Assembly (NCBI GenBank): GCA_035221665.1
Contig: CM069137.1
Span: 41,230,001-41,294,000 of the forward strand
DNA: 64,000 nt
Origin: Okamejei kenojei
Lineage: Eukaryota
Direction: 5' to 3'
Shown: in pieces, positions 1-64,000 of the stretch
Numbering within the stretch: the first letter of the stretch is position 1
Layout of the letters: each line of letters begins with the position of its first letter
The notes under the pieces: model-generated
Told to the model about the DNA's origin: nothing
Databases searched by the model: none
The model's input: only the letters and a program-made list of their open reading frames with translations
Program-made: the position numbers and the translations under genes

Positions 1-297
1 TTGCCGCGCTTATCTCCCGACCCGATCGAAAGTGCAAGTCATCGCTGGACCCACGCTTTGACTGAACCCTCCGTCCGGACCTATCCAACTCTAAAACTCC
101 AACTGACGGCGAGCCAGCTTTACGGAGTTAAATACTCTGCAGGGAAAGTTGTTTAAAACACTTACCTGCAAGTTCTACTTACTGCTGGTGGAGCTGCGCC
201 CTCCAGCACGTTCAGTGCGACATGCGCGGACGTAATGATGTGCATGCGCCTGGCAGGGCTTCTTCACGTAGTCACTCACGTGACTCCGAAGTGAAAT
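1..297 (-). mobile_element. Terminus of a DIRS1-type (tyrosine recombinase) retrotransposon, continuing off the left edge
   Basis: Ends in ...TCACGTAGTCACTCACGTGACTCCGAAGTGAAA, matching the terminus of the DIRS element at ~18400-18430 and complementary to its ICR at ~14160-14190. It abuts the 3' part of a host microexon. Confidence 0.7.
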
Positions 298-3289
298 GAG
301 ACATCGCTAGAAGAACCCTCAAATGTGAGTATTAACTAATAACTATCAGATGATTTATCTTGTTGATCTCAATCATTAGCAGTGAAGTGTTAGCCACTCC
401 ATTCAGAATAGTGAGTAAGACAGCGTGGTGCCCCAGTTTGATATGGAGGGAGAGGATTCTGATATTTGATTTCATTGCATGATGGGTCTGGTCTCTAGTG
501 AAGATGAATTTGGCATCAACAGGACAGGATTACTGGATTAGTGACTCCTAAACTCACACCAGTAATCATCTCTGAGTGTGAATCTTCCCTGGAGGAAACC
601 AAGATTCAATTGAACAGATGGCAATTGACACCTGTGCTACCTGCCTTAGGGATATCCATTGACTCTGCACATCTGCTTTACCAGGTAGTATTTTGAATAT
701 TGGGGCATTGTAGGGAGTGAGACTTTGAGTTGAGCTTTCTCAGTCCAGTACTGCCTCATTGAATCAACCCTTGGGAATGTAGGATTAACAATCCCTCATT
801 TATAATTCACTATTACGTTATGCTTTGTGGAGGGACTCTAATTATGCTTGTTACTTACCAAATACATGCTGAGCTAATTTTGGAAATGTTAATGCTTCCA
901 TGCAGATGAAAAGCAAGTCAGAAGAAACTTCATTGGAAGAATCTTCAAATGTAAATTTGATTTGGGAATTGTCATCTCTTGACTTTCATTTGCAATAGGG
1001 TGTAAAACCTTGATTGATCTGTCAGAATGGAGATTCCAATTTTATCTCATAGTATGTTTGTTTCAAACCATGGAAGAGAGGATACTGCCTGGTCTTTGAA
1101 TTTTATCTTCCACCTCAACACCACTTTACTGAACTTACACTGTAACCCTTGATTCCTCAAACTGACAAAATCCTCTCAATTTCTATTCTGATTGAACTCA
1201 GCGACTGAGCCTCCATGGGTCTCTGGGGTGGTGAGTTCCAAAGTCCACCCCCCAGTAAAGAGGTTCCTCCTCAATTCAATTCTAATTTTGAGATTTTTAC
1301 ACAATCTCTAGATGTCTTAGCAAATACAATTGCTGCCTGTGCCACCTGCTAAAGGAATATCCATTGACTCTGCACAGCTCCTTTACAACCACTATTTTGA
1401 ATTGGGGCACTGTAGAGAAACAGAGAATAATTGAAAAATAGGTGCAGGAGTAGGCCATTCAGCCCTTCGAGCGAGCAATACCATTCAATATGATCATGGC
1501 TGATCATCTAAAATCAGTACCCTATTCCTGCTTTTTCCCCATATCCCTTGATTCCTTTAGCCTCAAGAGCTAAATCTAACCGTCTCTTGAAAGTGAGACT
1601 TTTAGTTGAGTTTCCTCAGTCCAACACTACATCATTGAATTAACATTCGTGAATTGCTTGTTCTGCTAGCTCTAAACCACAAAACTAGAATGTCCAGAGC
1701 TAACAATGAATCTATTATCATTCAATATTTAATACTTGTGCATGCTTGTAATTTACAATTTCCAATACAGATTATTGTCTTATAGTTCAGTTTCAATTCA
1801 GTTTAGTTTACTGTCATGTGTACTGAGGTACAGTGAAAAGCTTAAAACATATACACCAGGGTGCAATGAAATTCCTTGATCGCAGGAAGCTACCGAGGCA
1901 AAGATACATATAGTAAAAATAACAGTAAACACAATAGAAGACAGTAGTGCAAACTGAAGTACAATAATGGAATAAATAAATAAGGTAAAGTTAAGAGTAT
2001 GTGGCAGTAACTCTGCGAAGGGAGGGATAAAGAAAGAGGTGATTGTTTCAGGAGTTTGACAGCAATTCATATATTTTCAAAATTACTAATTAGTATCCTC
2101 AACTAAATATATAAACATTATTTCCAAACAGGACAAATCCAAATCAGCAGAGATATCACAGGAGGATCAGAAAATGTGAGTAGAAATAGAAAGGTTTTCA
2201 GTTGATCTAGCTGATCATGACTGCGTGTAAAAATGTTTAATATCTTGGTTTAAATATGTTAAAATAAAGCGAGAGACAGTATTTATTGTAACTCAATTCA
2301 TTGAGAAAGTGATTCCGGTTTGATTCCTGTGGGAGGGTTGGGCTGTGGGGGGGAATTGTTGACTTTAGCTCCAATACAAAGGATGGCGCTGTTTCTCTTC
2401 ATAGAAAAAGTAAGCTGAGTATCAATAGGATTGTTGCAATGCATCGCAAGAGCAATGTTTGTACCAATCACAAACAACAGAGCCATCATGTTGGTGAAGA
2501 ACAATGCTAATATACCCAATGCTAATGCATGGGAAGGGGGGTGATACCATTCATTACCCCACTGACCCCACTAACCCCATTTATCTAGACATTATTGACC
2601 ATTGTTGAGCTGCAGAACAGAAATGTTTTGGTGAGGTCTTTTCAACTCACATACTGAATCTCTAATATGCCCTGATATATTTAGGATCTTCATTATTTTG
2701 TCCAAAGGTTTTTCTTCGCATCCTTTCATTTAACAGGCTGAACATAACAAATATTAATATTTTCATGGTTAAAAGACATCAAAAGAGACATCAATTGAAG
2801 GGTCTTCCAATGTAAGTTCATCAGGAAATTCTTATCCATTAATTAATGGAATAATTCCACCACTTTTAGGTCTAGAATTTATCTCAGACACATATCAATA
2901 TTTGGCTGCACTTCAGATTGTAACATGTCCTAATCTGCATTTATCAGTGATTTGGCAAATCTAAATTTTAAAGTGATTCTTTACCCAGTTATAAATTTCA
3001 TCTATTTAAACCTTGTGTTTAGAGACAAACCTAAAATTGTAAATAATTGTCTTGTCAAACAGATGAAAAGCAAGTCAACAGAATTATCTCTGGAGGAGTC
3101 TTCAAAAGTAAGTGTAAACAGAGGCTTTGAGTCCATGTATTCATCGTTAAAACCAATGATTTAAAAACTTAAGACAGAGTAAGCCTCAGTCCCCAACAAA
3201 TTACAATTATTTGGTGTGTCTATTCCCAGGAAACAGAAAGAGGACTCAAGAGGAAGACACTAACCATGAAGGAAACTCCTAGTGCCTGA
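298..3289 (+). pseudogene. 3' half of SPP2-like gene copy 0 (Ser/Glu-rich microexons and last exon), probably disabled
   Basis: Truncated exon 298-324 (ETSLEEPSN|GTGAGT); 906-950 (MKSKSEETSLEESSN); 2132-2175 (44 nt, DKSKSAEISQE..., -1 frameshift); degenerate exon ~2768-2811 (...KETSIEGSSN|GTAAGT, no AG acceptor); 3063-3107 (MKSKSTELSLEESSK); last exon from 3230 with one extra nt relative to copies A/B. Introns and 3'UTR are homologous to copy A. Confidence 0.75.
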
Positions 3290-3480
3290 ACTCAGGTGAA
3301 CATAAGAAGACTGCATTCAGAATAAACCAGACACTGTCACCTGTATGTGCACATGCTCATATGCAAGGACAGGGGCCTGGAGCTCCTGCTTGTACATAAC
3401 TAGGAGATTCGTTATGGGAGTACTGTTGTCATGTCTGTTCATTTCTGTATATTATGTTCTAAATTCATTGTTGATCCACA

Positions 3481-3486
3481 AATAAA
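3481..3486 (+). terminator. Polyadenylation signal of copy 0
   Basis: AATAAA at the same 3'UTR position as in copy A (31510-31515) and copy B (45192-45197). Confidence 0.6.
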
Positions 3487-3769
3487 ATTATTTACAACAA
3501 TTCATGCATTTGATATATCTGAGGATATGTGAGAAACCAGAGAGGATATTGCGGAGCCATGGTTGAAATTTCTGAGTCATCTTTAAATACGGAGGGGTGC
3601 CTGAAAGACTGGAGGGTGGTAATGTTGTGCCTCTATTCAAGAAGGGCTGCAGAGAAAATGCTGGGAACTATAGGCTAGTGAGTTTAACATCTGTAATTGA
3701 AAGTTACCAGAGAGTATTCTGAGGGAAAGATTACAGGCATTTAGTCGGACAAAGGCTGAATAGGGGTAA

Positions 3770-4569
3770 AGGCGCTGTCCCACTGCGGCGACCTAATCTG
3801 CGCATTTAGAAGAGTTTGCCTTCGACTCAAACTCGCAGCATGGTTGACACGTGGACCTAGGCGGTCCTATGAGGTCACAGAAACTCTCCTTCATGCACGA
3901 GGGAAGTTCCCTAATGCTCGCAGCCTCAGTTTGGTCGAGGAAATATTTTATGGACGGTATGGTTATTTTGAACTCGGAGTGCAGTGGAATGGGCTCGCTA
4001 TGTAGTTACAGGCAGTCGAGGGCAGCCGTAGGCAATCTCCTTCACTGACTGGGCATTTTAATTGGCTCATTGGAGTTTTCAGGCCAAGGAAAACCGACTG
4101 GTATGTTAAAATACCCGCAAAACTTTATTAAAAGTTGTCAGGCTTCTTAAAAGTGTCTCCACTCCTTCTCCCCCCTTCTCTCCCCTTTCTCCCCCCTTCT
4201 CCCCCCTTCCCCCCCTTCTCCCCCCTTTGCTCCCCTTCTCCCCCCTTTGCTCCCCTTCTCCCCCCTTTGCTCCCCTTCGCTCCCCTTCTCTCCCCTTCTC
4301 TTGCCCCCCCCCCCCTGCGCTCCTCTAGAGGACTTACCATACAATGTGCAGCCGTCTTTTACCTTTCTGTTCATCATGGGTGTGAATTTCAGACAGCAGA
4401 GGCCCCTGCCTTTGCGATGTGTTTGTATGCGTGTGTGTGTGCGGTCGGTCGATCCAGCTCATGGTTTCATCGCTGATGGTCGATCCAGCTCAAGGTTTTT
4501 CAGGCGAGTGCCCTTGGGCTTGGAGGTCGAAGACAGTCGCTGAAAGGTCGCGTCAGTGGGACAGGCCCT
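3770..4569. mobile_element. Non-autonomous DNA transposon (PIF/Harbinger-like MITE) inserted in CR1
   Basis: Imperfect ~25-bp TIRs (AGGCGCTGTCCCACTGCGGCGACCT / AGGTCGCGTCAGTGGGACAGGCCCT) flanked by a TAA duplication (3767-3769, 4570-4572); CR1 sequence is continuous across it. Confidence 0.75.
4165..4316. repeat. Polypyrimidine low-complexity tandem repeat, (CTCCCCCTT)-like
   Basis: Directly visible C/T-rich short-period repeat inside the MITE. Confidence 0.9.
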
Positions 4570-4923
4570 TAATCAGCATGGTTTTGTATGTGGGAGATCA
4601 TGTCTTACAAATCTGTTTGGAGTTTTTTGAAGACGTAACCAAAAAGGTCGATGAGGGCAGAGCTGTAGATGTTGTATATATGGACTTCAGCAAACCATCC
4701 AACAAGGTTCCGTATGGTAGGCTGCTCTGGAAGGTTAGATTGCATGGGATCCAGGGAGATATAGCTGAATGGATAGAAAATTGGCTTCAGGGAAAGAAGC
4801 AGAGGGTGGTGGTGGAAGGTTGTTTCTCAGACTGGAGGCCTGTGACTAGTGGTGTGCCTCAGGGTTCGGTGCTGGTCCCGTTATTGTTTGTCATTTATAT
4901 CAATGATTTGGATGAGGACATAC

Positions 4924-4924
<1 letters not shown>

Positions 4925-4990
<66 letters not shown>

Positions 4991-5112
4991 ATTGTTTATA
5001 GGGCGCTTTCAGGACTCTCAAGGACACCTTACAATTAAAAGCATGCCACCATACAATTAAAACAAGTATGAAACAAAAACAACATATACAGCAACAATAC
5101 ACAATTCGGAAA
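4925..5112 (-). mobile_element. Short 3' end of an L2-type LINE/SINE with a (ATT)n tail, seen as (AAT)n at 4925-4988
   Basis: Minus strand reads ...GTGTCCTTGAGAGTCCTGAAAGCGCCCTATAAACAATG(TAT)n, resembling L2-clade 3' ends; it interrupts the CR1 RT just before KFADD. Confidence 0.55.
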
Positions 5113-22280: not shown

Positions 22281-24190
22281 ACCATATAACCATATAACAA
22301 TTACAGCACGGAAACAGGCCCTCTCGGCCCTTCCAGTCCGTGCCGACCATTTGTTTTCCCCTAGTCCCATCTACCTGCACTCAGACCATACTCCTCCATT
22401 CCCTTCCCGTCCATATACCTATCCACTTTACTTTTAAATGTTAAAATTGATCCTGCCTCCACCACTTCTTTGGAAGCTCATTCCACAGAGCCGCCACCTT
22501 CTGAGTAAAGAAGTTCCCCCTCACATTACCCCTAAACTTCTGTCCCTTAATTCTCATGTCATGCCCTCTTGTTTGAATCTTCCCTACCCTCAATGGGAAA
22601 AGCTTATCCACGTCAACTCTGTCTATCCCTTTCATCATTTTAAAGACCTCAATCAAGTCCCCCGTTAACCTTCTGCGCTCCAAAGAATAAAGACCTAACT
22701 TGTTCAACCTTTCTCTGTAACATAGTTGCTGGAACCCAGGCAACATTCTAGTAAATCTCCTCTGTACTCTCTCTATTTTGTTGACATCCTTCCTATAATT
22801 AGGCAACCAAAATTGTAAACCATACTCCAGAATTGGTCTTACCAATGTCTTGTACAATTTTAACATTACTTCCCTACTCCTATATTCAATGCTCTGATTT
22901 ATAAAGGCCAGCACACCAAAGGCTTTCTTTACCACCCTATCTACATGAGATTCCACCTTCAGGGAACTATGCACAGTTATTCCTAGATCCCTCTGTTCCA
23001 CAGATTTCCTCAATTCCCTACCATTTACCATGTACATCCTATTTTGATTTGTCCTGCCAAGATGTAGCACTTCACACTTAACAGCATTAAACTCCATCTG
23101 CCATCTTTCAGCCCACTTTTCCAAATGGCCCAAATCTCTCTGTAGACTTTGAAAATCTACTTAATTATCCACAACACCACCTATCTTAGTATCATCTGCA
23201 TACTTACTTATCCAATTTTCCACCCCATCATCCAGATCATTGATGTACATGACAAACAACAGTGGACCCAACACAGATCCCTGAGGCACCCCACTGGTCA
23301 CCGGCTTCCAACCTGACAAACAGCCATCCACCATTACTCTCTGACATCTCCCATTTAGTCACTGTTGAATCCATCTTGCTACTCCGCCATTAACACCCAA
23401 AGATTGAACCTTCTTAACCAACCTTCCATGGGGAACCTTGTCAAAGGCCTTGCTGAAATCCATATAGACAACATCCACTGCTTTACCCTCATCAATTTCC
23501 ATAGTAACCGCTTCAAAAAATTCAAGAAGGTTTGTCAAACATGACCTTCCAGGCACAAATCCATGTTGACTGTTCCTGATCAGACCCTGTTTATCCAGAT
23601 GCTTATGTATATTATCTCTAAGTATCCTTTCCATTAATTTGCCCACCACTGACGTCAAACTAACAGGTCTATAATTGCTAGGTTTATTCTTTGAACCATT
23701 TTTAAACAATGGAACAATATGCGCTGTACGCCAATCCTCTGGCACTATTCCCGTTTCTAATGACATTTGAAATATTTCTGTCATAGCTCCTGCTATTTCT
23801 ACACTAACTTCCCAATGTCAATGTCCACTTATCCACTTTTATATTTTTCAAAAGTGTCAGTACTTCCTCCTCTTTGAATCTCATAGTTTCCATAGCTACT
23901 CTACTTTTTTCCCTTACCTCAAAGAGTTCACTATCCTTCTCATTGGTGAATACCGAAGAAAAGAAATTGTTCAATATCTCCCCCATCTCTTTTGGCTCTG
24001 CAGATAGCTGTCCATTTTGGCTCTCTACTGGTCCAATTTTATCCCTCGTTATCCTTTTGCTATTAATATAGCTGTAGAAACCCTTTGGGTTTACTTTCAC
24101 CTTTCTTGCCAAAGCAACCGCATATCTTCTTTTAGCCTTCCTAATTTAATTTCTTAAGATTCTTTTTACATTCTTTATACTCCTCACTTT
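22281..24190 (-). mobile_element. 5'-truncated CR1 LINE specific to the copy A upstream region
   Basis: ORFs 23804-24112, 23359-23784 and 22441-23133 ([35 protein letters not shown]); TATGGTTA tail; ATAGTA duplication at 22275-22280 and 24191-24196; absent at the homologous sites ~38335 and ~58795. Confidence 0.92.
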
Positions 24191-26590: not shown

Positions 26591-26638
26591 AGCAAACATG
26601 AGTCAGTGTTTGAATGTGGTTGAGGAGCAGGATATAAA
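26591..26638 (+). promoter_or_regulatory. Proximal promoter of copy A: FOX-like site, AP-1 (TGAGTCA), RUNX-like site (TGTGGTT), TATA box
   Basis: AGCAAACA 26591-26598, TGAGTCA 26599-26605, TGTGGTT 26615-26621, TATAAA 26633-26638, about 90 bp before the ATG; conserved in copy C. Confidence 0.65.
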
Positions 26639-26728: not shown

Positions 26729-29700
26729 ATGAAATCCTTCCTCCTAGTCATCGCTGCCGTGCAGATCCTTCACTGCTCAGGTAGGTACTGGGGAGAGGGA
26801 GGGTCTCAGAAAGCAATGAGTTACTGGTAATGAGCTTCAGTCAGCGACAATTCACCAATGTGTAAAAAGTATTCACTGTTCTTTGTTGAAATGTCTTGTA
26901 CAACTTTTCTTCTCTCTCTGCAGGAGTGCCAAGCACCAAGGATGCTCTGAGAGCCTCAGTTGCAAAACTGAATGAAATCACCGAGATCACCAACCTGTGT
27001 GCGATCACCAGGAGAGGTGTAACAAATGTAAGTGGGTCCTGGTCTAAATGTGTTTCACAGACTCGGCTCTGTAGGGATGTGCAAATTAGTTGTCTCCTTT
27101 AACTTGTGCCTAGAGTAAATTAATGACAGAAAGCATCAAAGGGGAACTTTTGAAGAAGGGTCTCGACCCGAAACGTCGCCTATCTCCTTCGCTCCTTAGA
27201 TGCTGCTGCACCCGCTGAGTTTCTCCAGCTTTTTGTGCACCATCAAAGGGGAACTGATGGGTATGTTAGGGATAGAATAGGTTGAAGAGTTGCAGGGCAA
27301 CAAAGAGAGGAGGAATAGGACAGGTGATGGATAGAATAGTTTGGGATTGTTCTGTTGGCTGTCAGTATTGAACCAAGGGGTTGAATAGCCTCACCCTGTT
27401 TAATTAGATTAGGTGTGTAAGAAAGAACTTCGGATGCTGGTTTAAACCGAAGAAAGACACAAAAAGCTGGAGTAACTCAGCGGGACAGGAATCACTGGAG
27501 AGAAGGAATAGATGACGTTTTGGGTCGAGACCCTGACGACAACCATTCCTTCTCTCCAGCGATGCTGCCTGTTCCGCTGAGTTACTCCAGCTTTTTGTGT
27601 CAATCTTCTTTAATTAGATTAGGTGTGTTGTCAGATAAGATAATATATAAACATAAAAGCTGAATTACTAAACATGAGCTTGATATTAGCAGTTTCAATG
27701 CATATCAGATCAAGATTTTAATCAAAAATCTATACTTAACTCTGGAAACTTTGGATTAGACGAATGTTTTGGAATAAAGGTTATAATTTTACCTTTGGGC
27801 AAATTAAGTCTCTTGCTCATTATGGGTGTTAATAATGGCACCGCCAATGTAATCATCTGCTAAAGAAAATACCTGGGTAGTTCTAAGCTTTATCAGAACT
27901 TTGTAATAACACCAGATATAAGACTTATGAATAAACTATTTTCTTTTCATCAGACCTATCGCACGGGTAAACTGTCATACAACGTGGATTTAACATTCAC
28001 CGTGAAAGAAACTGTCTGCTCCAAGAATTCTGGACATGAATTTGATGATTCCGGTTGCACCTTCCGCCCTAAAAAGATTGCTGTAAGTGCAGAGTTATAT
28101 TTTAACATGTATATCTCTGTGTGTATCGGGAAACATCACCGAAAGAGATATAATCACAGATTATTTCATATAAATTACTATACCTACAGATAAACAAAAG
28201 GCTGAGAATTGTGTTCATATGATAATCAATTTGATTCAATGTTGTGCTTGGAGTCATCAATAATTTCCCTGCATTTTGCTTTATTTTCACAGGAGAAAGG
28301 GTTTTGCAAAAGCCGCGTGGAATATTTTGCTGATAAAGTGGCTGACGTCGATGTGGAGTGTGAAGGTCTGAGGACCTTTGACAGCGAGAGTGACTCAATA
28401 GAATCGAGTGAAACCAGTATTGAGGTAACCACACAGTTATACAACTTAGGGCAGTGGGATGTCTAATACATGAGATCATTCACAAAACATTTCTTTGGTG
28501 TCCTGTTCTAAAGACTTAAATGTAAATAATTTTTGTATACAGACTCGAAGCAAATCAAAAGAGTCTTCTTTGGAGAAATCTGCACATGTGAGTATTAATT
28601 AGTATATTTCCAATGATTTATCTTGTTGATCTTAATTAATAGCAATGAAGTGTTAGCTATTCCATTCAAAATAGTGAGTGAGACAGTGCGTTGTCCCAGT
28701 TTGATATGTAGGGAAGGTATTCTGATATTTGATGCAGTACATGATGCATCTGGTCTCCACTCAAGTTGAGATGAGCACCAACAGTCTGCGAAGCTCATAC
28801 CAATTAGTCAATGAGCACAAATCCTTCAAGGAGTGAAACCAAAGTTAATTAAAACAGATAGCAATTGATGCCTGTTCAATCAGCCTTAAGAATATCCATT
28901 GACTCTGCACAACCACTTTACCGGGCATTCTTTTGAATATTGGGGCACTGTAGAGCGTGAAACGTTTAGTTGAGCTTCCTCAATCCAACACTATCTAATT
29001 GAATCAACACTTGGGAATGTAGAATTAACAATCCCACATTGATAATTAAATAGTCCAGTCTACCATTTGTAGGGAACAATCTATGTATGCATGTTACTGA
29101 CCAGGTAGATGCTGTGCTAATTTTGTGAATGTTAATGCTTTCATACAGGTGGAAAGCAAGTCAGAAGAAACTTCACTGGAAGAATCTTCAAACGTAAGTT
29201 TAATTTTGAATTATTAGCTCTTGATTCTCAACTGCATTATGGTATAAAACTTCGATTGATCTCTAGGAATAAAATTGATGGGTTTCACCTCATAATATGC
29301 GTGATCCAAGCAGTAAAGTGAGGATACTGAGTGGTCTTTGAATATTATCTTCCATCGCAACTCAACTTTAGTGAACAAACACTGTAACCCTTCATTCCAT
29401 GAACAGTCAGAAATCCTATCAATTTCTATTCTGACTAAACTCAATGACTGAGCCTCCACAGCTCTGGGTTAGAGAGTTGGAAAGGTCCACCTCCTTGGGT
29501 TTTTCTTCACCTTAATCCTAATTGACCCATTCATTATTTTGAGACTGTATCCCATGTTTTAGACTCCCGAGAATATGGAAAATACCCTCTCTCTTTCCTG
29601 CTATGCATTTTCATAATTAAGTTCATTGTGAGGAAATAACCTCATTCTTCTCACCCGTAAAGGTTTAAGCCTACTCAGTTCTTCATCTTTCGACGGATGC

Positions 29701-31293
29701 ACCATCCTAGGAAATAGCCTGGAGAACCGTTTCTGCACACTTTATAGAGTATCGAGCATATCCTTTCTTTGGTAAGGAGACCAAAATTGTACACAATACT
29801 CACAAAGGCTCCAAGTCATTGTAGTATTCTCAAGTCCTCTTGTAACAAAGGCAACATATCATTTGCCTTCATAACAGACCTCCACTTGTACTGAACTGCA
29901 ACTCTGAAATATCTAGATATTTTACAATGACTCCGTTATAAGTCAATATTTAATATCTGTGTATGCTGGTAATTTTTCAACTACAGTCATGGATTTTTAT
30001 TATTTTCACCAGGGTGCAATTAAATTACTTGCTCACATGAAGCTTACAGAGTAAACCACATGCACATAATAATGATAAATACAACACTAAACAAAACACT
30101 AGATTGTAGTGCAATCTGAAGCAGTTGAAAAAATAAATATACAATTATGAATGAAGTGAATTGTGTAGAGTTAACATCAAGAGTATGTGGCAGCACTTCC
30201 AGGAAGTGGGTGAGAAAGAGATGATTGTTTCAGGAGTCTGATGGCAATTCATTTATTTTCAAAATTACCAATTAGTGTCCCGTGCTAAATATATAATCAT
30301 TATTTCCTAACAGGACAAATCCAAATCAACAGAGACATCAAATGAGTCTCTAGACAACGTGAGTATAAATAGAACATTTTTCAGGTGATCTTGACTGTGT
30401 AAAGACATTTAATAGCTTGCGTTCAACTATATTAAAATATGGGGAGAGAGAGCCAATTACTTTATGATAGCTCAATGCATTTATAAAGGGATTCTTATCT
30501 TTGAGTCATGTGAGGAAGTTGGGCTGATGGGGGATTGTTGTGTTGGGTCCACTGACCCCACTCCCGGCATTATCCAGAGATACATATGGGAGGGAGAATA
30601 TTGTTCCACAAATGCTATTGGATATTGTCTATTCAGTAACTGAGGATTGGCCACTTCACCCTGAGTGTGGATTTGTTTTTTTGCTTCATTCTGAAATAGA
30701 ATTAGGAAAGGGAGTGCGCTTCTCCTGAGGACAATCCTGGTGTGTGCACTGATGTAACCGGTGGCTTCATTAGGGGAGCATCCCAAACATAGTCGCCATT
30801 TAACAGTGTATAATTACCTGTTCTGGGAATGGGCGAGTGAGGTGCAGGAGGAGGTCAGCACAGCCATGACCAACTGATGGAATAACTCACCTCTATTATG
30901 TAATAATTGATCTCAGAGCCCCAGCATATCAAGACTTTACTGCACTTCAAATGTGAACTGTTTATTGTGCAATTCCCAGTGACTTGCTATTCCAAGATTT
31001 AGAGTGATTCAAGTTGCACATTTACAAAATTAAATTATTTGAATTTTTTGTATTGACATGATTCTAAAATATTGTATATATATATCTTGTCAAATAGGTG
31101 AAAAGCAAGTCAACAGAGGTATCAGTGGAGGAGTCTTCAAATGTAAGTGTAAACTGAGGCTTTGTGTCATGTCGTTACCATAATTAAAACCAATGATAAA
31201 AGGTAGAAGTAGTGTGAACTCAGTTCAACATAAAATGACTCATGATTTCCTCAATTTCAGGAACAGAATGAGAACTCAAGAGGGAGACACTAA
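26729..31293 (+). CDS. spp2: SPP2-like secreted phosphoprotein, copy A (209 aa: signal peptide, cystatin-like SPP24 domain, Ser/Glu repeat tail)
   Basis: Exons 26729-26780, 26924-27027, 27954-28082, 28293-28424, 28543-28587, 29149-29193, 30314-30358, 31098-31142, 31261-31293; all GT-AG with an open frame. Protein MKSFLLVIAAVQILHCSG-VPSTKDALRASVAKLNE...NVDLTFTVKETVCSKNSG..DSGCTF...GFCKSRV...DVECE resembles SPP24 (DALSASVVKVN, LEFSIRETTCRKDSG, CRSTV). Orthology versus paralogy to SPP2 is not resolved. Confidence 0.85.
27149..27240 (+). mobile_element. 92-bp Penelope-derived insertion with a hammerhead-like core in intron 2 of copy A
   Basis: 15-bp TSD CATCAAAGGGGAACT (27134-27148, 27241-27255); absent from copies B and C; matches the pseudo-LTR of the Penelope element at ~53865-53960. 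Confidence 0.8.
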
Positions 31294-31509
31294 CCACGAA
31301 TGAAACTCCTGAGAACCTGAACTCAGTGTGAACACAAGCAGACCTCATTCAGAATAAACAAGACATTGTCACCTGTACTGTACTTGCTCATATACAAGGA
31401 CATGGGCCTGGAGCTCCTGACTGTACATATAATTGTAACTAGGATATTCTATTGTTTGTAAATGTTCTGTTCTTTTCTGTATATTATTATGTAATACGTT
31501 GTGGATCTA

Positions 31510-31515
31510 AATAAA
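31510..31515 (+). terminator. Polyadenylation signal of copy A
   Basis: AATAAA followed ~35 nt later by GT-rich AGTTGTTTTGC; conserved in copy B (45192-45197). Confidence 0.6.
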
Positions 31516-32926: not shown

Positions 32927-34505
32927 GTTTTTAAAAAAAAAAATTTTTTAGTATTTTTATTATAGAAACATAGTAATAACAAAGTACATTATTTTGCATT
33001 GCTGAAAATACATGATATTAATGATATATTCATGCTCTTAATAATATTTGTATTATCATTGATTTTAAAATTTAAGACTATATATTTTATATAATTGAAA
33101 ATACATAATATTAATGATAAATTCATACTGTTAGTAATATTTGTATTATCGTTAATTTTAAAATTTAAGACTATATATTTTATACAATTGAAAATACATA
33201 ATACTAATAATACCTTCATGATATTAATGATATATTCATACTATTAATAATATTTGTATTATCATTGATTTTAAAATTTAAGACTATATATTTTATATAT
33301 TTGAAAATACATGATATTAATAATACCTTCATGATATTAGTACTGTTTATATTCTTATTAATATTAAACATTTAAGATTATATGTTTTCTATACATTTTT
33401 CTAAAATTTGTTTTAAAGGTAGGAAAAAAATAGAGAAAAAGAGTGTAAGAAATATGATGGTGAATGGAGTATTAATCATTAATCCGTCCTTGGAGATATA
33501 GTCATGATTTATTATATATGTTTCTTCATCCATTCTAATATTCAGGTCTCAGTCAAGCCCTCGTGCCGAGCCATTATGACCCTGTAAATATTTAATAAAT
33601 GGAGACCAAATCTCTCTGAAGAGATCTAACCTGTCCATTAGGACAAGCCTCAATCTCTCCAGATGAAGTGTCTCCGACATTTCTGTGTTCCACATTTTGA
33701 TTGTTGGGGATGTAGGGCCTTTCCAAAATTTTAATATTAGTTTTTTCCCAATTATTAAACCATAGTCAATAAAAATTCTTTGATTCGTTGTTACTAGTTG
33801 GTCTGTTTCTAGTATTCCAAGTATTATTAACTTTGGATCAGGAGTCAGAATTATATTGACAACATTCGAAATTATCTTAAATATTTCTATCCAAAATTTT
33901 GTAATTTTTATACAGTTAGTAAATGAATGTGATAAATTTGCTTCTAAATGTTGACATTTATCACATATGGGGGATACTTTTGGAAAGATGTTATGTAATT
34001 TAGCTTTGGAATAATGTAATCTATGTAGTATTTTAAATTGTATAAGGGAATGTTTAGCATTTAACGAACAGTGATGTATATGTTGTAAACTTTCATCCCA
34101 TAGTTCTGGCCTTATAATTTGACCTAGTTCTTTTTCCCAAGACTGTCTATATATTTCTGTTGATGGAACATCATTTTCCAATAGAATATTGTATATAAAT
34201 GAAATCATTTTATCTGTATTTGGGTGTTTATTTAAGCATTCATCTAGAATTTCTATCTTTCTATTTCTAAGTTCTTGTGTATTTGCAGAAACATAGTTTC
34301 TGATTTGTAAATATCTAAAATATTCTTTAGTGTGTAGTCCATAAATTTGTTGTAACTCTTGAAATGAAAGGAAAGAGTTTTCCTTATAAAGATCTCCCAT
34401 CTTAGTAATTCCCTTATTTTTCCATTGTAAAAAAGCTTTATCCATCATTGAAGGTTTAAACGTAACATTATTTTTGCGATGGTAAGAGATAATGGTATTG
34501 ATTTT
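32927..34505 (-). mobile_element. 3' fragment of an L1/Tx1-clade LINE
   Basis: ORF 33549-34526 (QFKILHRLHY, CDKC..H...C zinc knuckle, KKLILKFWK, MSETLHLE) is homologous to the 3' end of the element at 5546-19108; T-rich tail at ~32927-32960. Confidence 0.85.
33004..33395. repeat. AT-rich ~93-bp tandem repeat (~4 units) in the L1 3'UTR
   Basis: GAAAATACAT unit starts at 33004, 33097, 33190 and 33303. Confidence 0.85.
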
Positions 34506-35147
34506 AGTTGTTGGCGTTGACGGCATTAGAAGATGATTTTAATTTTACTCCTACTATTACATTATCCAGCGATAATTTGATAATTTTACTCCTACTATTA
34601 CATTATCCAGCGATAACGGCTGTCAAAGTGATTTTTCTTCAGCAACTAAACAGCATGTTCAAAATCGATTTGAATAGTCTGAAGAAAAACTGCATTTTTA
34701 ACCCGCCCCCCTCTTAAACGCGCCAAAGTCACGCACACGGCCAGTGACAGAACTGCCGCACCACTGAAGGTAAGTTTTGTAACATACCTACTTGAAGGAA
34801 ACTCATCTGGTCACAGGTAGAACATACAAACTCCACTCAGACAGCATCCGAGGTCAGCATTGAATCCAGTCACTGGAAATGTGAGACAGCAGCTTTAAAC
34901 TTTGCACCGCTGTGTCATTCCTGGCTCACGGGTTCTTTTAAGTGTCAAAGAGATATTACTTCTCTATACTGGCCAGAATGAAAGGCCATGAAGAAATATA
35001 ACAAATGATATACTGTTTGCTGAGCTTAAGAGAAATATTGGCAGAAATGCTTAGAATCTGTTTATTACCACAGCACGAAGAATAGCAAAGAAAAGCCGCT
35101 CAATGTCCAGCAGCGGAAGGACCCTATTAGTTTAGTTTAGCTTGGTT

Positions 35148-40884: not shown

Positions 40885-43800
40885 ATGAAATCCTTCCTCC
40901 TCACCATCGCTGCCGTGCAGATCCTCCACTGCTCAGGTAGGTACTGGGGAGAGGGAGGGTCTCAGAAAGCAATGAGTTACTGGTAATGAGCTTCAGTCAG
41001 TGATAATTCACCAATGTGTAAAAATTATTCACTGATCTTTGTTGGAATGATTTGTACAACTTTCCTTCTCTCTCTGCAGGAGTGCCAAGCACCAAGGATG
41101 CTCTGAGAGCCTCAGTTGCAAAACTGAATGAAATCACCGAGATCACCAACCTGTGTGCGATCACCAGGAGAGGTGTAACAAATGTAAGTGGGTCCTGGTC
41201 TAATTGTGTTTCACAGACTCGGCTCTGTAGGGATGTGCAAGTTAGTTGTCTCCTTTAACTTGTGCCTGGAGTAAATTAATGACAGAAAGCATCAAAGGGG
41301 AACTGATGGGTATGTGAGGGAGAGAATGGGTTGAAGGGTTGCAGGGCAACAAAGAGAGGAGGAATAGGACAGGTGATGGATAGAATAGGTTGGGATTGTT
41401 CTGTTGGGTGCCAGTATAGATTAGGTGGGTGCTCAGATAAGATAATGTATAGACACAAGAGTTTAATTACTAAACATGAGCTCGATATTAGCAGGTTTCA
41501 TTGCATATCAGGTCAAGAATTTAAATCCAAAATCTATATTTAACTCTGGAAATTTTGGACTACATGTATCTTTTGGAATAAAGGTTGTAATTTTACCTTT
41601 TTGGCAAATTAAGTCTCTTGCTCATTATGGGTGTTAATGCTGGCACTGCCAATGTAATCATCTGCTGAAGTAAAGGCCTGTGTAGTTCTAAGCTTTATCA
41701 AACCATTGTAATAACACTAGATATAAGACTTATCAATAGACTATTTTCTTATCATCAGACCTATCGCACGGGTAAGCTGTCATACAACGTGGATTTAACA
41801 TTCACCGTGAAAGAAACCGTCTGCTCCAAGAATTCTGGACATGAATTTGATGATTCCGGTTGCACCTTCTGCCCTAAAAAGATTGCTGTAAGTCCAGAGT
41901 TATATTTTAACCATTTATACCTCTGTGTGTAACGGGTAACAACATAGAAAGAGATATCACAGATTATTTCATATTTCATAGAAATTACCATACCTGCAAA
42001 GAAAAGGCTGAGAATTGTGTTATATCATAATCACTGATTCAATGTTGTGCTTGGAGTCATCAATAATTTCCCTGCATTTTGCTTTATTTTCACAGGAGAA
42101 AGGGTTTTGCAAAAGCCGCGTGGAATATTTTGCTGATAAAGTGGCTGACGTTGATGTGGAGTGTGAAGGTCTGAAGACATTTGACAGCGAGAGTGACTCA
42201 ATAGAATCGAGTGAAACCAGTATTGAGGTAACCACACAGTTATACAACTTAGGGCAGTGGGATTTCTAACACATGAGATCATTCACAAAACATTTCTTTG
42301 GCGTCTTGTTCTAAAGACCTAAATGTAAATATTTTTTGTATACAGACTCGAAGCAAATCAAAGGAGTCTTCGTTGGGGAAATCTGCACATGTGAGTATTA
42401 ATTAGTATTTATCCAATAATTGATCTTGTTGATCTTAATCAATAGCAATGAAGTGTTAGCTATTCCATTCAGAATAGTGAGTGAGACAGCGCGTTGTCCC
42501 AGTCTGATATGTAGGGATGGGATTCTGATATTTGATGCAGTACATGATATGTCTGGTCTCCACTGAAGTTGAGATGAGCATCAACAGTCTGCCAAGCTCA
42601 TACCAATTATAATCAATGAGCACAAATCCTTCATGGAGTGAAACCAAAGTTCATTAAAACAGAAGGCAATTGATGCCTGTTCAACCTGCCATAAGAATAT
42701 CCATTGACTCTGCTCAACCACTTTACCAGGCATTCTTTTCAATATTGGGGCACTGTAGAGAATGAAACTTTTTAGTTGAGCTTCCTCAGTCCAAAACTAC
42801 CTCATTGAATCAACACTTGGGAATGTAGAATTATCAATCCCACATTGATAATTCAATATTCCAGTCTACCATTTGTAGGGAACAATCCATTTATGCATGT
42901 TACTGACCAGGTAGATGCTGTGCTAATTTTGTGAATGTTAATGCTTTCATACAGGTGGAAAGCAAGTCAGAAGAAACTTCACTGGAAGAATCTTCAAACG
43001 CAAGTTTAATTTTGAATTATTAGATCTTGATTCTCAACTACATTATGGTATAAAACTTAGATTGATCTGTTGGAATAGAATGGAAGGATTTTACCTCATA
43101 ATCTGCCTATTCCAAACAGTTAAAGGAGGATACTGAGTGGTCTTTGAATATTATCTTCCATCACAACACCACTTTATTGAACAAACACTGTTCCATGTTT
43201 CAATTTCTGTTCTGTCCGAACCCAATGACTGAGCCTCCACGGCTCTGGGTTGGAGAGTTAGTAAGGTTTTTCTTCACCTCAATCCTAATTGAGACTGTAT
43301 CCCATGTTTTAGACTCCTGAGAATGCGGAAACATCCCCTCTCTCTTCCCTGCTATGCATTTTCATAATTATGTTCATTGTGAGGAAATTGTGAGGAAATC
43401 ACCTCATTCTTCTCATCTTTAAATGTTTAAGCCTACTCAGTTCCTCATCTTACGACGGATGCACCATCCTAGGAAATTGCCTGGAGAACCTTCCTGCACA
43501 CTTTATAGTATCGAACATATCCTTTCTTTGGTAAGGAGACCAAAATTGTGCACAATACTCACAAAGGCTCCAAGTCATTGTAGTATTCTCTTGTAACAAA
43601 AGCAACATATCATTTGCCTTCGTAACAGACCTCCACTTGTACTGAACTGCAACTCTGAAATATCTAGATATTTTACGATGACTCCGTTAGAAGTCAATAT
43701 TTAATATCTGTGTATGCTGGCAATTTTTCAACTACAGTCATGGATTATTATTATTTTCACCAGGGTGAAATTAAATAACTTGCTCACATGAAGCTTACGG

Positions 43801-44822
43801 AGTAAACCACATGCACATAATAATGATAAATACAACAATATACAAAACACTAGACTGTAGTGCAATCTGAAGCAGTGGAAAAAATTAATATACAATTATG
43901 GATGAAGTGAATTGTGTAGAGTTAAGATCAGGAGTATGTGGCAGTACTTCCAGGAAGTGGGTGAGAAAGAGATGATTGTTTCAGGAGTCTGATGGCAATT
44001 CATATATTTTCAAAATTACTAATTAGTGTCCCGTGCTATAAAGTGAGTATAAATAGAACATTTTTCAGATAATCTTGACTGTGTAAAGACATTTAATAGC
44101 TTGGGTTCAACTATATTAAAATATGGGGAGAGAGAGCCAATTACTTTATGGCAGTTCAATGCATTTATAAAGGGATTCTGATCTTTGAGTCATGTGGGGA
44201 AGTTGGGCTGATGGGGGATTGTTGTGTTGGGTCCACTGACCCCACTCCCGGCATTATCCAGAGAGATATATCGGAGCGAGAATATTGTTCCACAAATGCT
44301 GTTGGATATTCTCTATTCAGTAACTGAGGATTGGCAACTTCACCCTGAGTGTGGATTTGTTTTTTTGCTTCATTTTGAAATAAGGAAAGGAAGTGCACTT
44401 CTCCTGAGGACAATCCTGGTGTGTGCACAGATGTAACCGGTGGCTTCTTTAGGGGAGCATCCCAGACATAGTCGCCATTTAACAGTTTTAACATAATTAC
44501 CTGTTGTTGGAATGGGCGAGTGGGGTCAGGAGGACTTTAGCACAGCCGTGACAAACTGATGGAATAACTCACCTCTATTATGTAATAATTGATCTCAGAG
44601 CCCCAGCATATCAAGACTTTACTGCACTTCAAATGTGAACTGTTTATTGTGCAATTCCCAGTGACTTCTGTGTATTCCGAGATTTAGAGTGATTCAAGTT
44701 GCACAATTAGAAACTGAAATTATTAAAACTTTGTGTATGGACATGATGCTAAAATATTTTAAATATACCTTGTCAAATAGGTGAAAAGTAAATCAACAGA
44801 GGTATCAGTGGAGGAGTCTTGA
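40885..44822 (+). CDS. SPP2-like copy B, C-terminally eroded (~182 aa) or incipient pseudogene
   Basis: Exons 40885-40936, 41080-41183, 41759-41887, 42096-42227, 42346-42390, 42955-42999 (GC donor), exon 7 deleted (~44040), 44781-44825 with TCA>TGA at 44820-44822; ancestral last exon 44943-44975. Confidence 0.75.
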
Positions 44823-47800
44823 AATGTAAGTGTAAACTGAGGCGTTGCGTCATGTTGTTAGCATCTTTAAAACAATGAAAAAAGATTGAAGTAGTGTGAA
44901 CTTAGACCAACATTAAATGACTCATGATTTCCTCAATTTCAGGAACAGAATGAGGACTCAAGATGGAGACACTAACCACAAATGAAACTCCTGAGAGCCT
45001 GAACTCAGTGTGAACACAAGAAGACCTCATTCAGAATAAACTAGACATTGTCACCTGTACTGTACTTGCTCATATACAAGGACAGGGGCCTGGAGCTCCT
45101 GACTGTACATATAATTGTAACTAGGAGATTCTACTGTTTGTAAATGTTCTGTTCTTTGTTGTATATTATTATGTAATAAATTGTGGATCTAAATAAAATT
45201 ATTAAGAAATATTGATGGATTTGTTTCCAGAAGTTGTTTTGCATGTCACTGATCTACAGTGGTTCATCAAGTCATTGTCCTCGAGTCAGCCGGTCCCTCA
45301 TTGATGATGCAGCTTCTTTGTCCGGTGAGACCTCCTGATGTGGGACCTTCTCTGTCTGGCGAATGTCCTGATGTGTTGGACTATTAGCTATTCTATATCA
45401 ATGTCAGGCACTACAACCTAGATAGCTTATTTCACTTTTGCAAGATTGAAATCGTCTAGTGCTGTTTGTGTGGAGTTTGTGTGTTCTCCCTGTGACTGCT
45501 TGCATTTGTATTTGGGTGGTTGAATCGTTCTAAACATTTTAGACATTCATTTTATATCGAAGTCAAGTGAGTCACATGGCATGGGAATCGGAGCTGTTCG
45601 AAACTGCTCCGGCAGGTAAGACAATTTTGTTTCAGGAACGGGCAGCTGTTCCGAAAATAGGTGTAGAGGGCACGGAGAAGCTGACAAGTGCAGCCTGTGC
45701 AGCTGCCGCCGTTGGAGCTCCGAACGGGAGCAGGCGGCCGGACTTGCTGAGGCCGCCAGTGAGGCTCCGGATGGGAGTAGGCAGACGGACTTGATGAAGT
45801 CGCCAGTGAGGCTCCGGTTGAGAGCAGGCGGCCGGCCTTAGTAAAACTGTCAGGTGCGGCCCATACAGTTGCTGCCTTGAGGCTCCAAACGAGAGCAGGC
45901 GGCCTGAATTAGGAAAGCTAATGGGCGTGACCCGTGCAGCTGCCGCCAGTAAGGCTCCAGAAGGGAGCAGGCGGCTGACCGCGGAGACGTTGACGGGCGC
46001 AAACCGTTCAGACACCTCCATGGAGGCTCCAGAAGGGAGCAGACAGTGGTATGCGGAGAAGCTGAAGGGCGTGACCCGTACAGCTTCCTCCTTTGAAGCT
46101 CCAGAAAGGAGCAGTCGGGAGTCACTATCTGGCCCCGCATTATCAGCCTCTTGGTCCAGGCTTACAGTACTGGCAGGCGTGACCTGTCCAGTGATCCCCG
46201 CTGAGGCTCTGAAGGAGCAGCTGGCCAAATGAGCAGCCTGTCGAACCAGGCTGGGAGAAACGGGCAATGCGATCTGCCAAAAAAGGCAGAAGGCTGTCGA
46301 ATTAAGCTCAGAATACTAAGGCTCCGAAGGAACAGAAGGGGCCGAAGGTAATTCCTAAAAAAATTGCTCATTTATGCAGGGCCAGTAACATGCAGCCTGC
46401 AAAGTATCTCTTCGGAGAGGACTTATGTTAGCAAGTTTAAAACTTGCAGGAAGAATTTTAGGAGGCTGCAGGGGTGGTAGAAGCATCATATGTGAGTAGG
46501 GCTTCAGTATTCCGGCGGGCATACCACCTCTATATATAACAGTAGGAATCGTTACTCTGAGGCTAGTTGGAACACCAGGCCTACTCAATTCAGACCTAGC
46601 CAGAGGCCTTTTTTTAGCCCAGGACCATCGCGCTCACCGTGTTGAAGAGAATGAGTTGCGCACAGTGGCGACTGAGATAGGTTGTTCCAGGCAGAGGACT
46701 GCGGTTGCAACTCCTGGTTCATGGTTGCATTATGATATTTTCCAATCTGAGGGTGATTCGGCCTGTGAGGAGTTGACAGGGAACCTGTATTCCCACACCA
46801 AGTGGATGCTATGCTTCAATTCTAGTCGCATAAGGAACTGTACTGATTCTGTCAGACACTGGAGGTTTGTAGGTTAATGCCATCAGTTGAGGCAAAATCA
46901 AAGTTGGAAGGCATTAACCCCAGAAAGATTTGAGAATTCTCAGGGGAAGAAAAATGTAGCATGCCAAATCAAGTTAGGATTTGGCAAGTCTGATCATGTG
47001 TTTGGTTAACCAGTTTAAGATGGATAATTGTCTTATAGCAATTTAGCTGACTCAGAGGATTTAGGGCCTCAATCGATCTTGAAGATGCATACTTTTCCAT
47101 ATCTATACACGAGAGGCACAGATATATCTGGTGTTTTTTATGACAAAGCCAGTAGTGGAAAGTTTAGGCTCTACCTAGGGGTTGTCATCATGCCTAGGCT
47201 ATTTACAAAGATTCTAAAGCTAATGCTGCCCTACTCAGATCAAAAGGGCATTGTGTCATGGAGTTTATAGACAACATGCTTTTGTAGCTGATAAGACTCA
47301 GTGGTTTTATCAGTAGATGCCTCTTACGATATTAAAGATGCAGCAACATCTAAGGGGGTAGAGGAACTGAAAGAAATTTTCATTAGGCGATAAATAGTAT
47401 TGGGTAGGCTAATGGGACTGAAGGATGATAAATCCCCTGGACCTGATGGTCTGCATCCCAGGGTCCTCAGGGAGGTGGCACTAGAAATAGTGGACGCATT
47501 GGTGATCATTTTCCAATGTTCAATAGATTCAGGATCAGTTCCTGTGGATTTGATGGATAGCTAATGTTATCCCATTTTTCAAGAAAGGAGCAAGAAAACG
47601 GGGAATTACAGACCAGTTAGCCTGACTTCGGTGGTGGGAAAGATGCTGGAGTCAATTTTTAAAGAGGTAATAATGGGGCATTTGGATAGCAGTAAAAGGA
47701 TTAGTCCAAGTCAACATGGATTTATGAAAGGGAAATCATGCTTGACTAATCTTCTGGAATTTTTTGAGGATGTGACAAGTAAAATGGATGAAGGGGTGCC

Positions 47801-49816
47801 AGTGGATGCAGTGTATCTAGACTTTCAGAAAGCCTTTGATAAGGTCCCATTCGGGAGACTGGTGACTAAAATTAGAGCACATGGTATTGGGGATAGGGTG
47901 TTGACATGGATAGAAAATTGGTTGGCAGACTGGAAGCAAAGAGTAGGAGGGAACTGGTCCTTTTCAGAATGGCAGGCAGTGGCGAGTGGAGTGCCGCAAG
48001 GCTCGGTGTTGGGGCTGCGAATGTTTACCATATATATTAATGATTTGAAAGAGGGAATTAGGAGCAACACTAGCAGGTTTGTGGATGACACAAAGCTGGG
48101 TGGCAGTGTGAACTGTGAAGAGGATGTTAGGAGGTTGCAGGGTTACCTGAACAGGTTGAGTAAGTGGGCAGATGTGTGGCAGATGCAGTATAATATAGAT
48201 AAATGTGAGGTTATCCACTTTGGCGGCAAAAACAAGGGGGCGATTATTATCTCAATGGGGTTAGGTTAGGTAAGGGGGACGTGCAGCGAAACCTGGGCGT
48301 CCTTGTAGACCGGTCACTGAAAGTTGGCTTACAGGTACAGCAGGCAGTGAAGAAAGCTAATGGAATGTTGGCCTTCTTAACAAGAGGATTTCAGTATAGG
48401 AGTAAAGAGGTTCTTCTGCAGTTGTGTAGGGCTCTGGTGAGACCACATCTGGAGTATTGTGTACAGTTTTGGTCTCCTAATTTGAGGAAGGACATCCTTG
48501 TGATTGAGGCAGTGCAGCATAGGTTCACGAGATTGATCCCTGGGATGGCGGGACTGTCATATGAGGAAAGATTGAAAAGACTAGGCTTGTATTCACTGGA
48601 GTTTAGAAGGATGAGGGTATATGTTATAGTGTGGCGTCAGCCATATATGCTCGAACCCTCGTCAGGAGATACGAGGGCGGGCACGTGACGTCATGGGCTA
48701 GAGGGAGTGTCCTGGTACTTAAGGTCTCTTACCTCGAGACCTAGGAGAGTCAACAGGTAGCTGAGCCCGAGAGGACAACCTCGCTCAGCTACAGCAACTT
48801 TGTAATATAGTTAGCGCACCCACCTAACGTGCCATTAATGAATAAACAACCGTTTGAACCGACCTGATGTCTCACCTTTATTCACCACGTATGGTGCCGC
48901 TACATTGGTGACCCCGACTGTCCATATTGAAATTTGGATTTCTCCTGAAGCACGCAGCCTCGGGAGACCTGATGTCTGCAGCCGGTTGCCCAGCCCTGCA
49001 GAACTACGCTGCCGCCAACCAGGCCCAGCAGTGAGGTATGCCGCGTCTTCCCCACCAGCTGCTGCTCACCGGAGATGAGAAGCCGCGGCTGCCGCCGCCC
49101 TCCCTCTCCCGGCAACGGCGCAGGCCCCGCTTCCAACCCCCACACCGCTCCAGGCCTTGTGTGACGGCCGCCGAGCTCCTCCGCATGACCTGCCCGGAGC
49201 CCACCACCGGAGCGGAGAGGTTGTACCAGCCGCCGCTGCCCCACCAGCTGCTGCAGGAACTGCAAGAGTAGCAGCCTCCTGCCCACTACAACGCCGACGC
49301 ACGCCCGACAGCTCTGGGAGCAGAGAGTACCCGCCGCTCTCCCGCTCCCGGCAACGGACTAGGCTCCAGGCCCTGCACCGGGCTTCACCACGGACATGGT
49401 TTCAGCCCCGGCACCGCACCAGGCCTCACCGCATCTCCAGGCCTTGCACCGGACCCGGCCTCACCGCGGCCAAGGCTCCAGGCCCTGCACCGGCCTCACC
49501 TCACCCGGGCTCACCGCTCCAGACCCGGCACCACAACAGGCCTCACAGCGGCCACGGCTCCACGTCCTGCCCTGCACCACGCCTGGCCCCGCCGACCGCT
49601 GCCCAGGGCCTAGCCACCCGATAGGGCGGGCTTACCTGAGGCGACCGCCGTGGAGACGCCCTTCTGCTCCTCACCGGTCTTCAATCGCTGGTGAATCCGC
49701 TTCAGCCGGCCGACAAGATGGCCGCCGCACCATCTTGGAACAAGCGGCCGCCCGACTACAAAAATGGCCGCCGCGGACGGCCGGAAGTGAAGTACGAACT
49801 TACCTGACCGCCGTCT

Positions 49817-62398: not shown

Positions 62399-63973
62399 AT
62401 GAAATCCTTCCTCCTCGCCATCGCTGCCGTGCAGATCCTCCACTGCTCAGGTAGGTACTGGGGAGAGGGAGGGTCTCAGAAAGCAATGAGTTACTGGTAA
62501 TGAGCTTCAGTCAGTGATAATTCACCAATGTGTAAAAAGTATTCACTGTTCTTTGTTGGAATGATTTGTACAACTTTCCTTCTCTCTCTGCAGGAGTGCC
62601 AAGCACCAAGGATGCTCTGAGAGCCTCAGTTGCAAAACTGAATGAAATCACCGAGATCACCAACCTGTGTGCGATCACCAGGAGAGGTGTAACAAATGTA
62701 AGTGGATCCTGGTCTAATTGTGTTTCACAGACTCGGCTCTGCAGTGTTGTGCAACTTAGTTGTCTCCTTTAACTTGTGCCTGGAGTAAATTAATGACAGA
62801 AAGCATCAAAGGGGAACTGATGGGTATGTGAGGGATAGAATAGGTTAAAGGGTTGCAGGGCAACAAAGAGAGGAGGAATACGACAGATGATGGATAGAAT
62901 AGTTTGGGATTGTTCTGTTGGGTACCAGAAAATAACCGAAGGGTAGAATAGCCTCACCCTTTTTAATTAGATTAGGTGTGTAAGAAGGAACTGCAGAGCC
63001 TGGTTTAAACCCAAGATAAACACAAAAAGCTGGAGTAACTCAGCGGGACAGGAATCACTGGAGAGAAGGAATTGATGACGTTTTGGGTCGTGACCTAACA
63101 ACACCCATTCCTCTCCAGCGATGCTGCCTGTTCCGTTGTGTTACTCCAGCTTTTTGTGTCTATCTTCTTTAATTAGATTAGGTATGTGCTCAGATAAGAT
63201 AATATATAAACATAAGAGTTTAATTACTAAACATGAACTCTATATTAGCAGGTTTCAATGCATATCAGATCAAAAATTTAAATCCAAAATCTGTACTTAA
63301 CTCAGGAAATTTTGAACTAGACGAATGTTTTGGAATAAAGGTTGTAATTTTACCTTTGGTCAAATTAAGTCTCTTGCTCATTATGGGTGTTAATGCTGGC
63401 ACCGCCAATCTGCTAAAGTAACAGCCTGTGTCTAAGCTTTATCAGAACTTTGTAATAACACTAGATATAAGACTTATCAATAAACTATTTTCTTTTCATC
63501 AGACCTATCGGACGGGTAAACTGTCATACAACGTGGATTTAACATTCACCGTGAAAGAAACTGTCTGCTCCAAGAATTCTGGACATGAATTTGGTGATTC
63601 CGGTTGCACCTTCCGCCCTAAAAAGATTGCTGTAAGTGCAGAGTTATATTTTGAAGCATTTAAACCTCTGAGTATAACGGGTAACATCACAGAACGGGTA
63701 ACATCACAGAAATAATCACAGATTATTTCATAGAAATTACCATACCTACAAAGAAAAGTCTGAGAATTGTGTTATATGATATGATTCAATGTTGTGCTTG
63801 GAGTCATTAATATTTCCCTGCATTTTGCTTTATTTTCACAGGAGAAAGGGTTTTGCAAAAGCCGCGTGGAATATTTTGCTGATAAAGTGGCTGACATTGA
63901 TGTGGAGTGTGAAGGTCTGAAGACCATTGACAGCGAGAGTGACTCAATAGAATCGAGTGAAACCAGTATTGAG
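62399..63973 (+). CDS. SPP2-like copy C, exons 1-4 (gene continues beyond the window)
   Basis: Exons 62399-62450, 62594-62697, 63503-63631, 63842-63973; GT-AG, open frame, near-identical to copy A (MKSFLLAIAAVQILHCSG...EFGDSGCTF...DIDVECEGLKTIDSESDSIESSETSIE). Confidence 0.85.
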
Positions 63974-64000
63974 GTAACCACACAGTTATACAACTCAGGG

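Follow-up and report, generated by a model that had tools for sequence, protein, structure and literature searches.

A tandemly arrayed spp2.3 gene of the skate Okamejei kenojei with a Ser-x-Glu-rich tail built of 45-nt exon modules

The window analysed here, a stretch of 64,000 nt of Okamejei kenojei contig CM069137.1, contains an intact spp2.3 paralog, named copy B, which is part of a tandem array near VPS8; its tail is made of a 15-aa exon module, present 0 to 7 times per copy of the array. The expansion of spp2 in chondrichthyans, at a locus near nme9/vps8, was published in 2026 (PMC13188829); the paper counts as many as fifteen spp2.3 copies in Amblyraja radiata and describes the accumulation of SxE motifs in spp2.3 tails as putative Fam20C sites, and it likens the expansion to SCPP evolution. 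Copy B is an ordinary member of this recently described family, real and, at family level, spliced. An earlier note on this DNA had proposed that an SPP2 scaffold evolved an SCPP-like tail for biomineralisation; since the functional idea is already found in PMC13188829, this interpretation is largely right, with a likely role in biomineralisation and a family expressed in mineralising chondrocytes, but it is not new. What is added concerns the exon level: the exon-module basis of the tail, site-specific selection, loss of the last intron and a frameshifted tail do not appear in the main text of PMC13188829, where the terms exon, intron, splic, isoform, frameshift, gene conversion and converg have 0 occurrences. 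No description of the exon-level architecture of the spp2.3 tail was found in the literature searched, outside of which lie subscription papers and the Fig. 9 and FASTA supplements of PMC13188829.

The copy B model spans 26729-31293 and consists of nine exons of 52, 104, 129, 132, 45, 45, 45, 45 and 33 nt (Table 1); intron 1 is in phase 1 and the remaining seven are in phase 0, and the reading frame is open for 209 aa. Each of the four 45-nt exons is flanked by AG on its 5' side and GT on its 3' side, in agreement with the claim of the earlier note that four 15-aa repeat peptides lie on exact 45-nt phase-0 exons. The spliced model also bears out the sites it had listed, with 12 S-x-E (three in exon 4, eight inside the microexons and one spanning the last junction) and 6 S-x-S. 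Cys residues are located at 16, 43, 74, 87, 100 and 118, the last four forming the core, and they are followed by a Ser-rich stretch at 126-137, as in SPP2/SPP24. Residues 122-209 comprise 26 Ser, 22 Asp/Glu and 12 Lys/Arg, with a pI of 4.6, and the net charge of the tail is -10 before phosphorylation. The microexons share pairwise 21-34 of their 45 nt; comparison of the module units of copy B revealed exon-centred similarity only, with no long intron homology, indicating that the exon duplications are old. SINE-like pieces with very high read depth are present in intron 2 (27135-27629), and an AT-rich tandem repeat of 93/113 nt is found downstream of the gene, at 32990-33398.

Table 1. Features of copy B and of the other copies, by position in the window
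Feature	Position	Strand	Remarks
TATA-like box, copy B	26633..26638	+	TATAAA, 96 nt before ATG; putative function
Copy B exon 1, phase 1	26729..26780	+	signal peptide by eye; 143-nt GT..AG joint in X1, X2, X4
Copy B exon 2, N-terminal part of cystatin-like domain	26924..27027	+	joint 27027-27954
Copy B exon 3, Spp-24 domain	27954..28082	+	Pfam Spp-24, E 1.4e-5
Copy B exon 4, domain end and Ser-rich stretch, 3 S-x-E	28293..28424	+	adjacent to exon 3 in X2/X4 contigs
Copy B exon 5, 45-nt module, possibly skippable	28543..28587	+	joints e4-e5, e5-e6; also e4-e6
Copy B exon 6, 45-nt module	29149..29193	+	contig joints
Copy B exon 7, 45-nt module	30314..30358	+	contig joints
Copy B exon 8, 45-nt module	31098..31142	+	contig joints
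Copy B terminal exon, 10 codons, stop 31291-31293, 3' UTR	31261..31515	+	AATAAA at 31510
Copy A, 3' part of older paralog	280..3500	+	exons 1-4 upstream of window
Copy C, truncated or decaying	40885..45200	+	exons 1-4 open
Copy D, exons 1-4	62399..64000	+	four intact modules beyond window end

Evidence for splicing comes from public read runs. Fourteen runs were listed, none of which is recorded as RNA and which bear no tissue label; eight were guessed to be RNA and four of these (X1-X4) were mapped, at 80% likeness. X1, which is RNA only by guess, has a share of 0.13 of the sampled words and probably stems from another species; indeed, the run contigs probably derive from related species, and those of X1 are not assignable to copy B as opposed to a paralog. 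X1 contigs join e1-e2, e2-e3, e4-e5, e5-e6, e6-e7, e7-e8 and e8-e9, all at the predicted sites, while the pieces of e3 and e4 are adjacent in X2 and X4 contigs; one microexon joint in all, from X3, was contributed by X2-X4. X1 depth is about 500-6100 in exon bins and 0-50 in intron-only bins devoid of SINEs, although mapped contigs cannot rank expression and uncovered bins prove nothing. An e4-e6 joint is also present in X1, meaning that exon 5 either was skipped or is absent from the paralog concerned. Moreover, three Amblyraja RefSeq isoforms of 242, 227 and 212 aa have an identical core and differ by whole modules. The microexons of the family are therefore spliced, as shown in a related run, and the claim that all four enter transcripts holds at this level, through contigs of a probable RNA run.

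The assignment to SPP2 was made on exon 3 alone and on full-length relatives (71-89% identical to copy B, three aligned). Exon 3 gives Pfam Spp-24 with E 1.4e-5 and 25.6 bits, just below the cut-off of 26, versus E 0.0092 for Cathelicidins. The four full-length relatives all exceed the Spp-24 cut-off with 31-40 bits, while their Cathelicidins and Cystatin scores do not rise above 17. Exons 2 and 4, scanned alone, matched no Pfam family, and a Pfam Spp-24 search of the genome returned 0 matches, which is an artefact caused by the small size of the exons. Among the homologues of exon 3, 69/69 carry PF07448 and 69/69 are from sharks or rays, the closest being skates (93-95%); searching representatives at 50% identity with a profile yielded 62 matches, with Spp-24 as the best family in 46 of the 47 scanned. 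A cathelicidin- or fetuin-type gene, or a protein acting mainly in BMP2 binding with a passive tail, is thus very improbable: weak Cathelicidins and Cystatin Pfam matches do occur, and the Spp2 domain is credited with BMP2 binding (PMC13188829), but the cathelin domain reaches at most 17.3 bits against a cut-off of 21, the tail has an acidic pI, a single domain is present, and both the VPS8 synteny and the selective signature in the tail argue against these readings. The neighbours that mark an SPP2 locus are vps8, nme9, sh3bp4 and arl4c; Vps8 matches are found at C7:40.76 Mb, about 200 kb from the array (synteny was tested on VPS8 alone), in line with the published locus of spp2. The SPP2-like identity initially proposed is thereby upheld by domain, homologues and synteny. 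An Arg-rich C-terminal region is absent from copy B, whose 10 C-terminal residues include only 2 Arg; this does not bar membership, since the main text of PMC13188829 reports the Arg-rich end as missing from catshark spp2.2 and spp2.3 too.

Phylogenetic analysis of the core, a quick tree of 145 cores and 102 columns built without cathelicidin or fetuin outgroups, places copy B with Amblyraja XP_032880457.1, its nearest protein (89% identity, annotated skate), in a clade with catshark spp2.3s1-s7 (SH-aLRT 96). The catshark labels derive from Table S14 of PMC13188829 and from accessions; labelled catshark spp2.1 and spp2.2 were outside the tree, so that the exclusion of spp2.2 is indirect. The catshark genes also have the domain, the vps8-side locus and the SxE-rich tail in common with copy B; spp2.3s3 and s4, with 209 aa, four 15-aa units and 12 SxE, correspond to it in all these counts at 70-71% identity, and nothing major sets copy B apart from the elasmobranch duplicates. 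The elephant shark spp2.3 protein XP_007905871.1 (P0145) is sister to this clade (SH-aLRT 87) and has an SxE-rich repeated tail with 23 SxE; its repeat differs in sequence from that of copy B, with a period of 15 residues.

The 21 bony-type SPP2 proteins, so labelled by tree and sequence and with two of them named, stand apart from the clade. Bony-vertebrate SPP2/SPP24 shares with copy B the signal peptide, the Spp-24 domain with four core Cys and a short Ser-rich stretch after it, at 24-26% identity (two aligned); however, it is a single, liver-expressed gene (PMC13188829), unlike the spp2.3 array. In each of the 21 representatives the part beyond the core contains 1-4 SxE and no more than one S-x-E-x-S-x-E unit, so that a repeated tail of this kind is absent from this set. 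Conversely, the tail length fits 10+15n aa (25, 40, 55, 70, 85) in 46 of the 135 public proteins from elasmobranchs whose core could be recognised, where about 9 would be expected if lengths were even (4 more proteins, with no recognisable core end, were left out). Judged from these sequences, a tail of this design is the norm for spp2.3 proteins of elasmobranchs; together with the publication of the family, this leaves the idea of an unusual, undescribed SPP2 gene unsupported.

A second comparison is with the acidic SCPPs (SPP1, DMP1), the caseins and the elasmobranch scpp, which are alike in tandem clustering, phase-0 introns, SxE motifs, acidity and expression in mineralised tissues. Copy B shows 7/8 introns in phase 0 and 12 SxE. 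However, SCPPs derive from the 5' exons of sparc-L/SPARCL1 and are described as having no folded domain (PMC9122587), whereas copy B keeps a cystatin-like domain, has a first coding intron in phase 1 and is located near VPS8; its likeness to SCPPs is analogy, not homology. The accompanying statement that chondrichthyans are devoid of SCPPs is incomplete, as elasmobranchs own an scpp, independently derived from sparc-L (PMC9122587).

The modules are conserved in a characteristic manner. In 86 modules with an AG acceptor, S5 is kept in 83, E7 in 81, S9 in 80 and E11 in 81, while positions 6, 8 and 10 are variable; these modules contain 156 S-x-E, compared with 69 +/- 6 over 2000 shuffles. Pairwise pN/pS among 76 unique stop-free modules is 0.09 for motif codons, 1.02 for x codons and 0.57 elsewhere, and 0.29 in the cystatin core; the module values are descriptive, since modules were chosen by profile and pairs are non-independent. 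The FAM20C consensus is S-x-E/pS. Retention of S and E with free x is the pattern that would be expected for a kinase consensus. Candidate modules of other lengths, 57 nt and 42 nt, occur at G000:C7:41216629 and 41572741, and 41571740, and match insertions in proteins of other skates.

Copy B is one of four copies in the window, together with A, C and D, and the array on the contig gives 30 matches between C7 40.98 and 41.60 Mb and comprises about 25 copies. Over 664 kb of the locus there are 25 exon-4 matches and 94 module matches; the module profile had 0 matches on a base-shuffled copy of the same 664 kb. Automatic models have open exons 1-4 in 15/25 copies, one of them doubtful, and two divergent copies are possibly intact. 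Copies on opposite strands converge tail to tail at G000:C7:41355266-41356246 (L017), an inverted block extends from about 41.356 to 41.527 Mb, and LINE reverse-transcriptase-like open stretches were seen by eye between copies of the window (22444-23817, 33552-34538, 47565-48685, 54131-55471).

Within the window B and D are intact, C is damaged in its tail and A is out of frame. In copy C (42955-43001, 44040, 44781-44825) a GC donor follows exon 6, exon 7 is deleted, exon 8 contains a TGA and an extra unpaired Cys is present; in copy A exons 1-4 are out of frame, and two of its modules contain stops and have no splice acceptor. Copy B could accordingly be a redundant or near-neutral recent duplicate in a birth-and-death array with untuned module number, as the 86-93% identity of B, C and D across introns and flanks, the decay of C and A and the about 10/25 copies with no open model would allow. 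This is improbable, since all splice sites of copy B are kept and its frame is open, orthologous-looking four-module proteins are found in other skates and the motif codons are conserved.

Other copies depart from this architecture at the 3' end or at the first tail exon. Eleven copies (G000:C7:41336620-41507386, L015-L032) have no last intron, and a net loss of one base shifts their last codons to give a different end of 13 residues, the same as in Amblyraja, Leucoraja and Rhinoraja proteins. In two further copies, L052 (G000:C7:41039912-41044916, minus strand, exon 4 at C7:41,042,590) and L006 (G000:C7:41186125-41189247, plus strand, exon 4 at 41,187,379), the first tail exon is 40 nt long; this moves the following module into a different frame, and the tail becomes Lys/Arg-rich. 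Of 142 public proteins, 16, belonging to 11 species of sharks and rays, have tails of this type, with net charge +8 to +13. Each scores 46-71 against the shifted frame of the acidic modules, but 16-33 against the remaining two frames; after shuffling, with half the targets used, scores do not exceed 40. With its cationic tail on a cystatin-like domain, this type is reminiscent of the cathelicidin layout. In 16/16 of these proteins 13 residues precede the split codon, which points to one old deletion. Their cores often group with near-identical acidic copies of the same species, and a single clade of basic-tail cores is rejected (AU p 0.0009, on 28 rows chosen from a larger set), which suggests that exons 1-4 underwent gene conversion. 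Judged by accession, the catshark genes spp2.3s1 and s2 belong to the Lys/Arg-tail type, and they have high cartilage TPM, although read assignment among near-identical paralogs may blur these values; the text of PMC13188829 ascribes an Arg-rich end to spp2.1 only.

The product of copy B is likely a secreted cartilage-matrix protein; FAM20C likely phosphorylates its Ser-x-Glu tail, which in that state would bind calcium phosphate. The putative signal peptide would route it through the Golgi, where FAM20C could modify the 12 S-x-E and up to 6 primed S-x-S sites (up to 18 serines), leading to a disordered polyanion on a cystatin-like domain; this may stabilise amorphous calcium phosphate or bind apatite, and so control the location of tesserae and vertebral mineral. 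Since each module keeps the frame and brings two sites, duplicating, losing and probably skipping exons would change the phosphate load by two sites per 15 aa, whereas gene duplication would raise the dose. Mineralising cartilage is favoured by the catshark data, while teeth, denticles and liver are disfavoured (PMC13188829).

The same source leaves undecided whether the putative sites promote or inhibit mineralisation. Copy B might instead encode a circulating or local inhibitor and carrier of mineral, similar to fetuin-A or calciprotein components, rather than a structural regulator of the mineralisation front; in mammals Spp2 forms part of calciprotein particles, and mineralisation may be inhibited by hyperphosphorylation (PMC13188829), but this is unlikely given that, in the main text of that paper, catshark spp2 copies are not expressed in liver and spp2.3 is found in mineralising chondrocytes. 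The local form of the inhibitor overlaps with the preferred explanation of a matrix protein.

Beyond that preferred explanation, a more tentative and rather doubtful proposal is that the spp2.3 array represents a second, SCPP-independent, exon-modular mineral toolkit, in which copying, loss and skipping of a 45-nt exon would tune a phosphoserine polyanion, and an ancient 5-nt deletion, by shifting the reading frame of this exon, would have generated a conserved polycationic partner, the paralogs of opposite charge derived from one module acting together in mineralising cartilage.

Among the candidates to explain how cartilage becomes mineralised in sharks and rays in the absence of bone SCPPs, spp2.3 is already the leading one; the interest of the present locus is carried by its undescribed exon modularity and by the frameshifted paralog. 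The exon map also suggests that gene conversion of exons 1-4, and not recent duplication alone, lies in part behind the species-wise grouping of spp2.3 copies. It provides natural length variants, with 0-7 modules, and a paralog of opposite charge, making possible a direct test of dose and charge in mineral binding.
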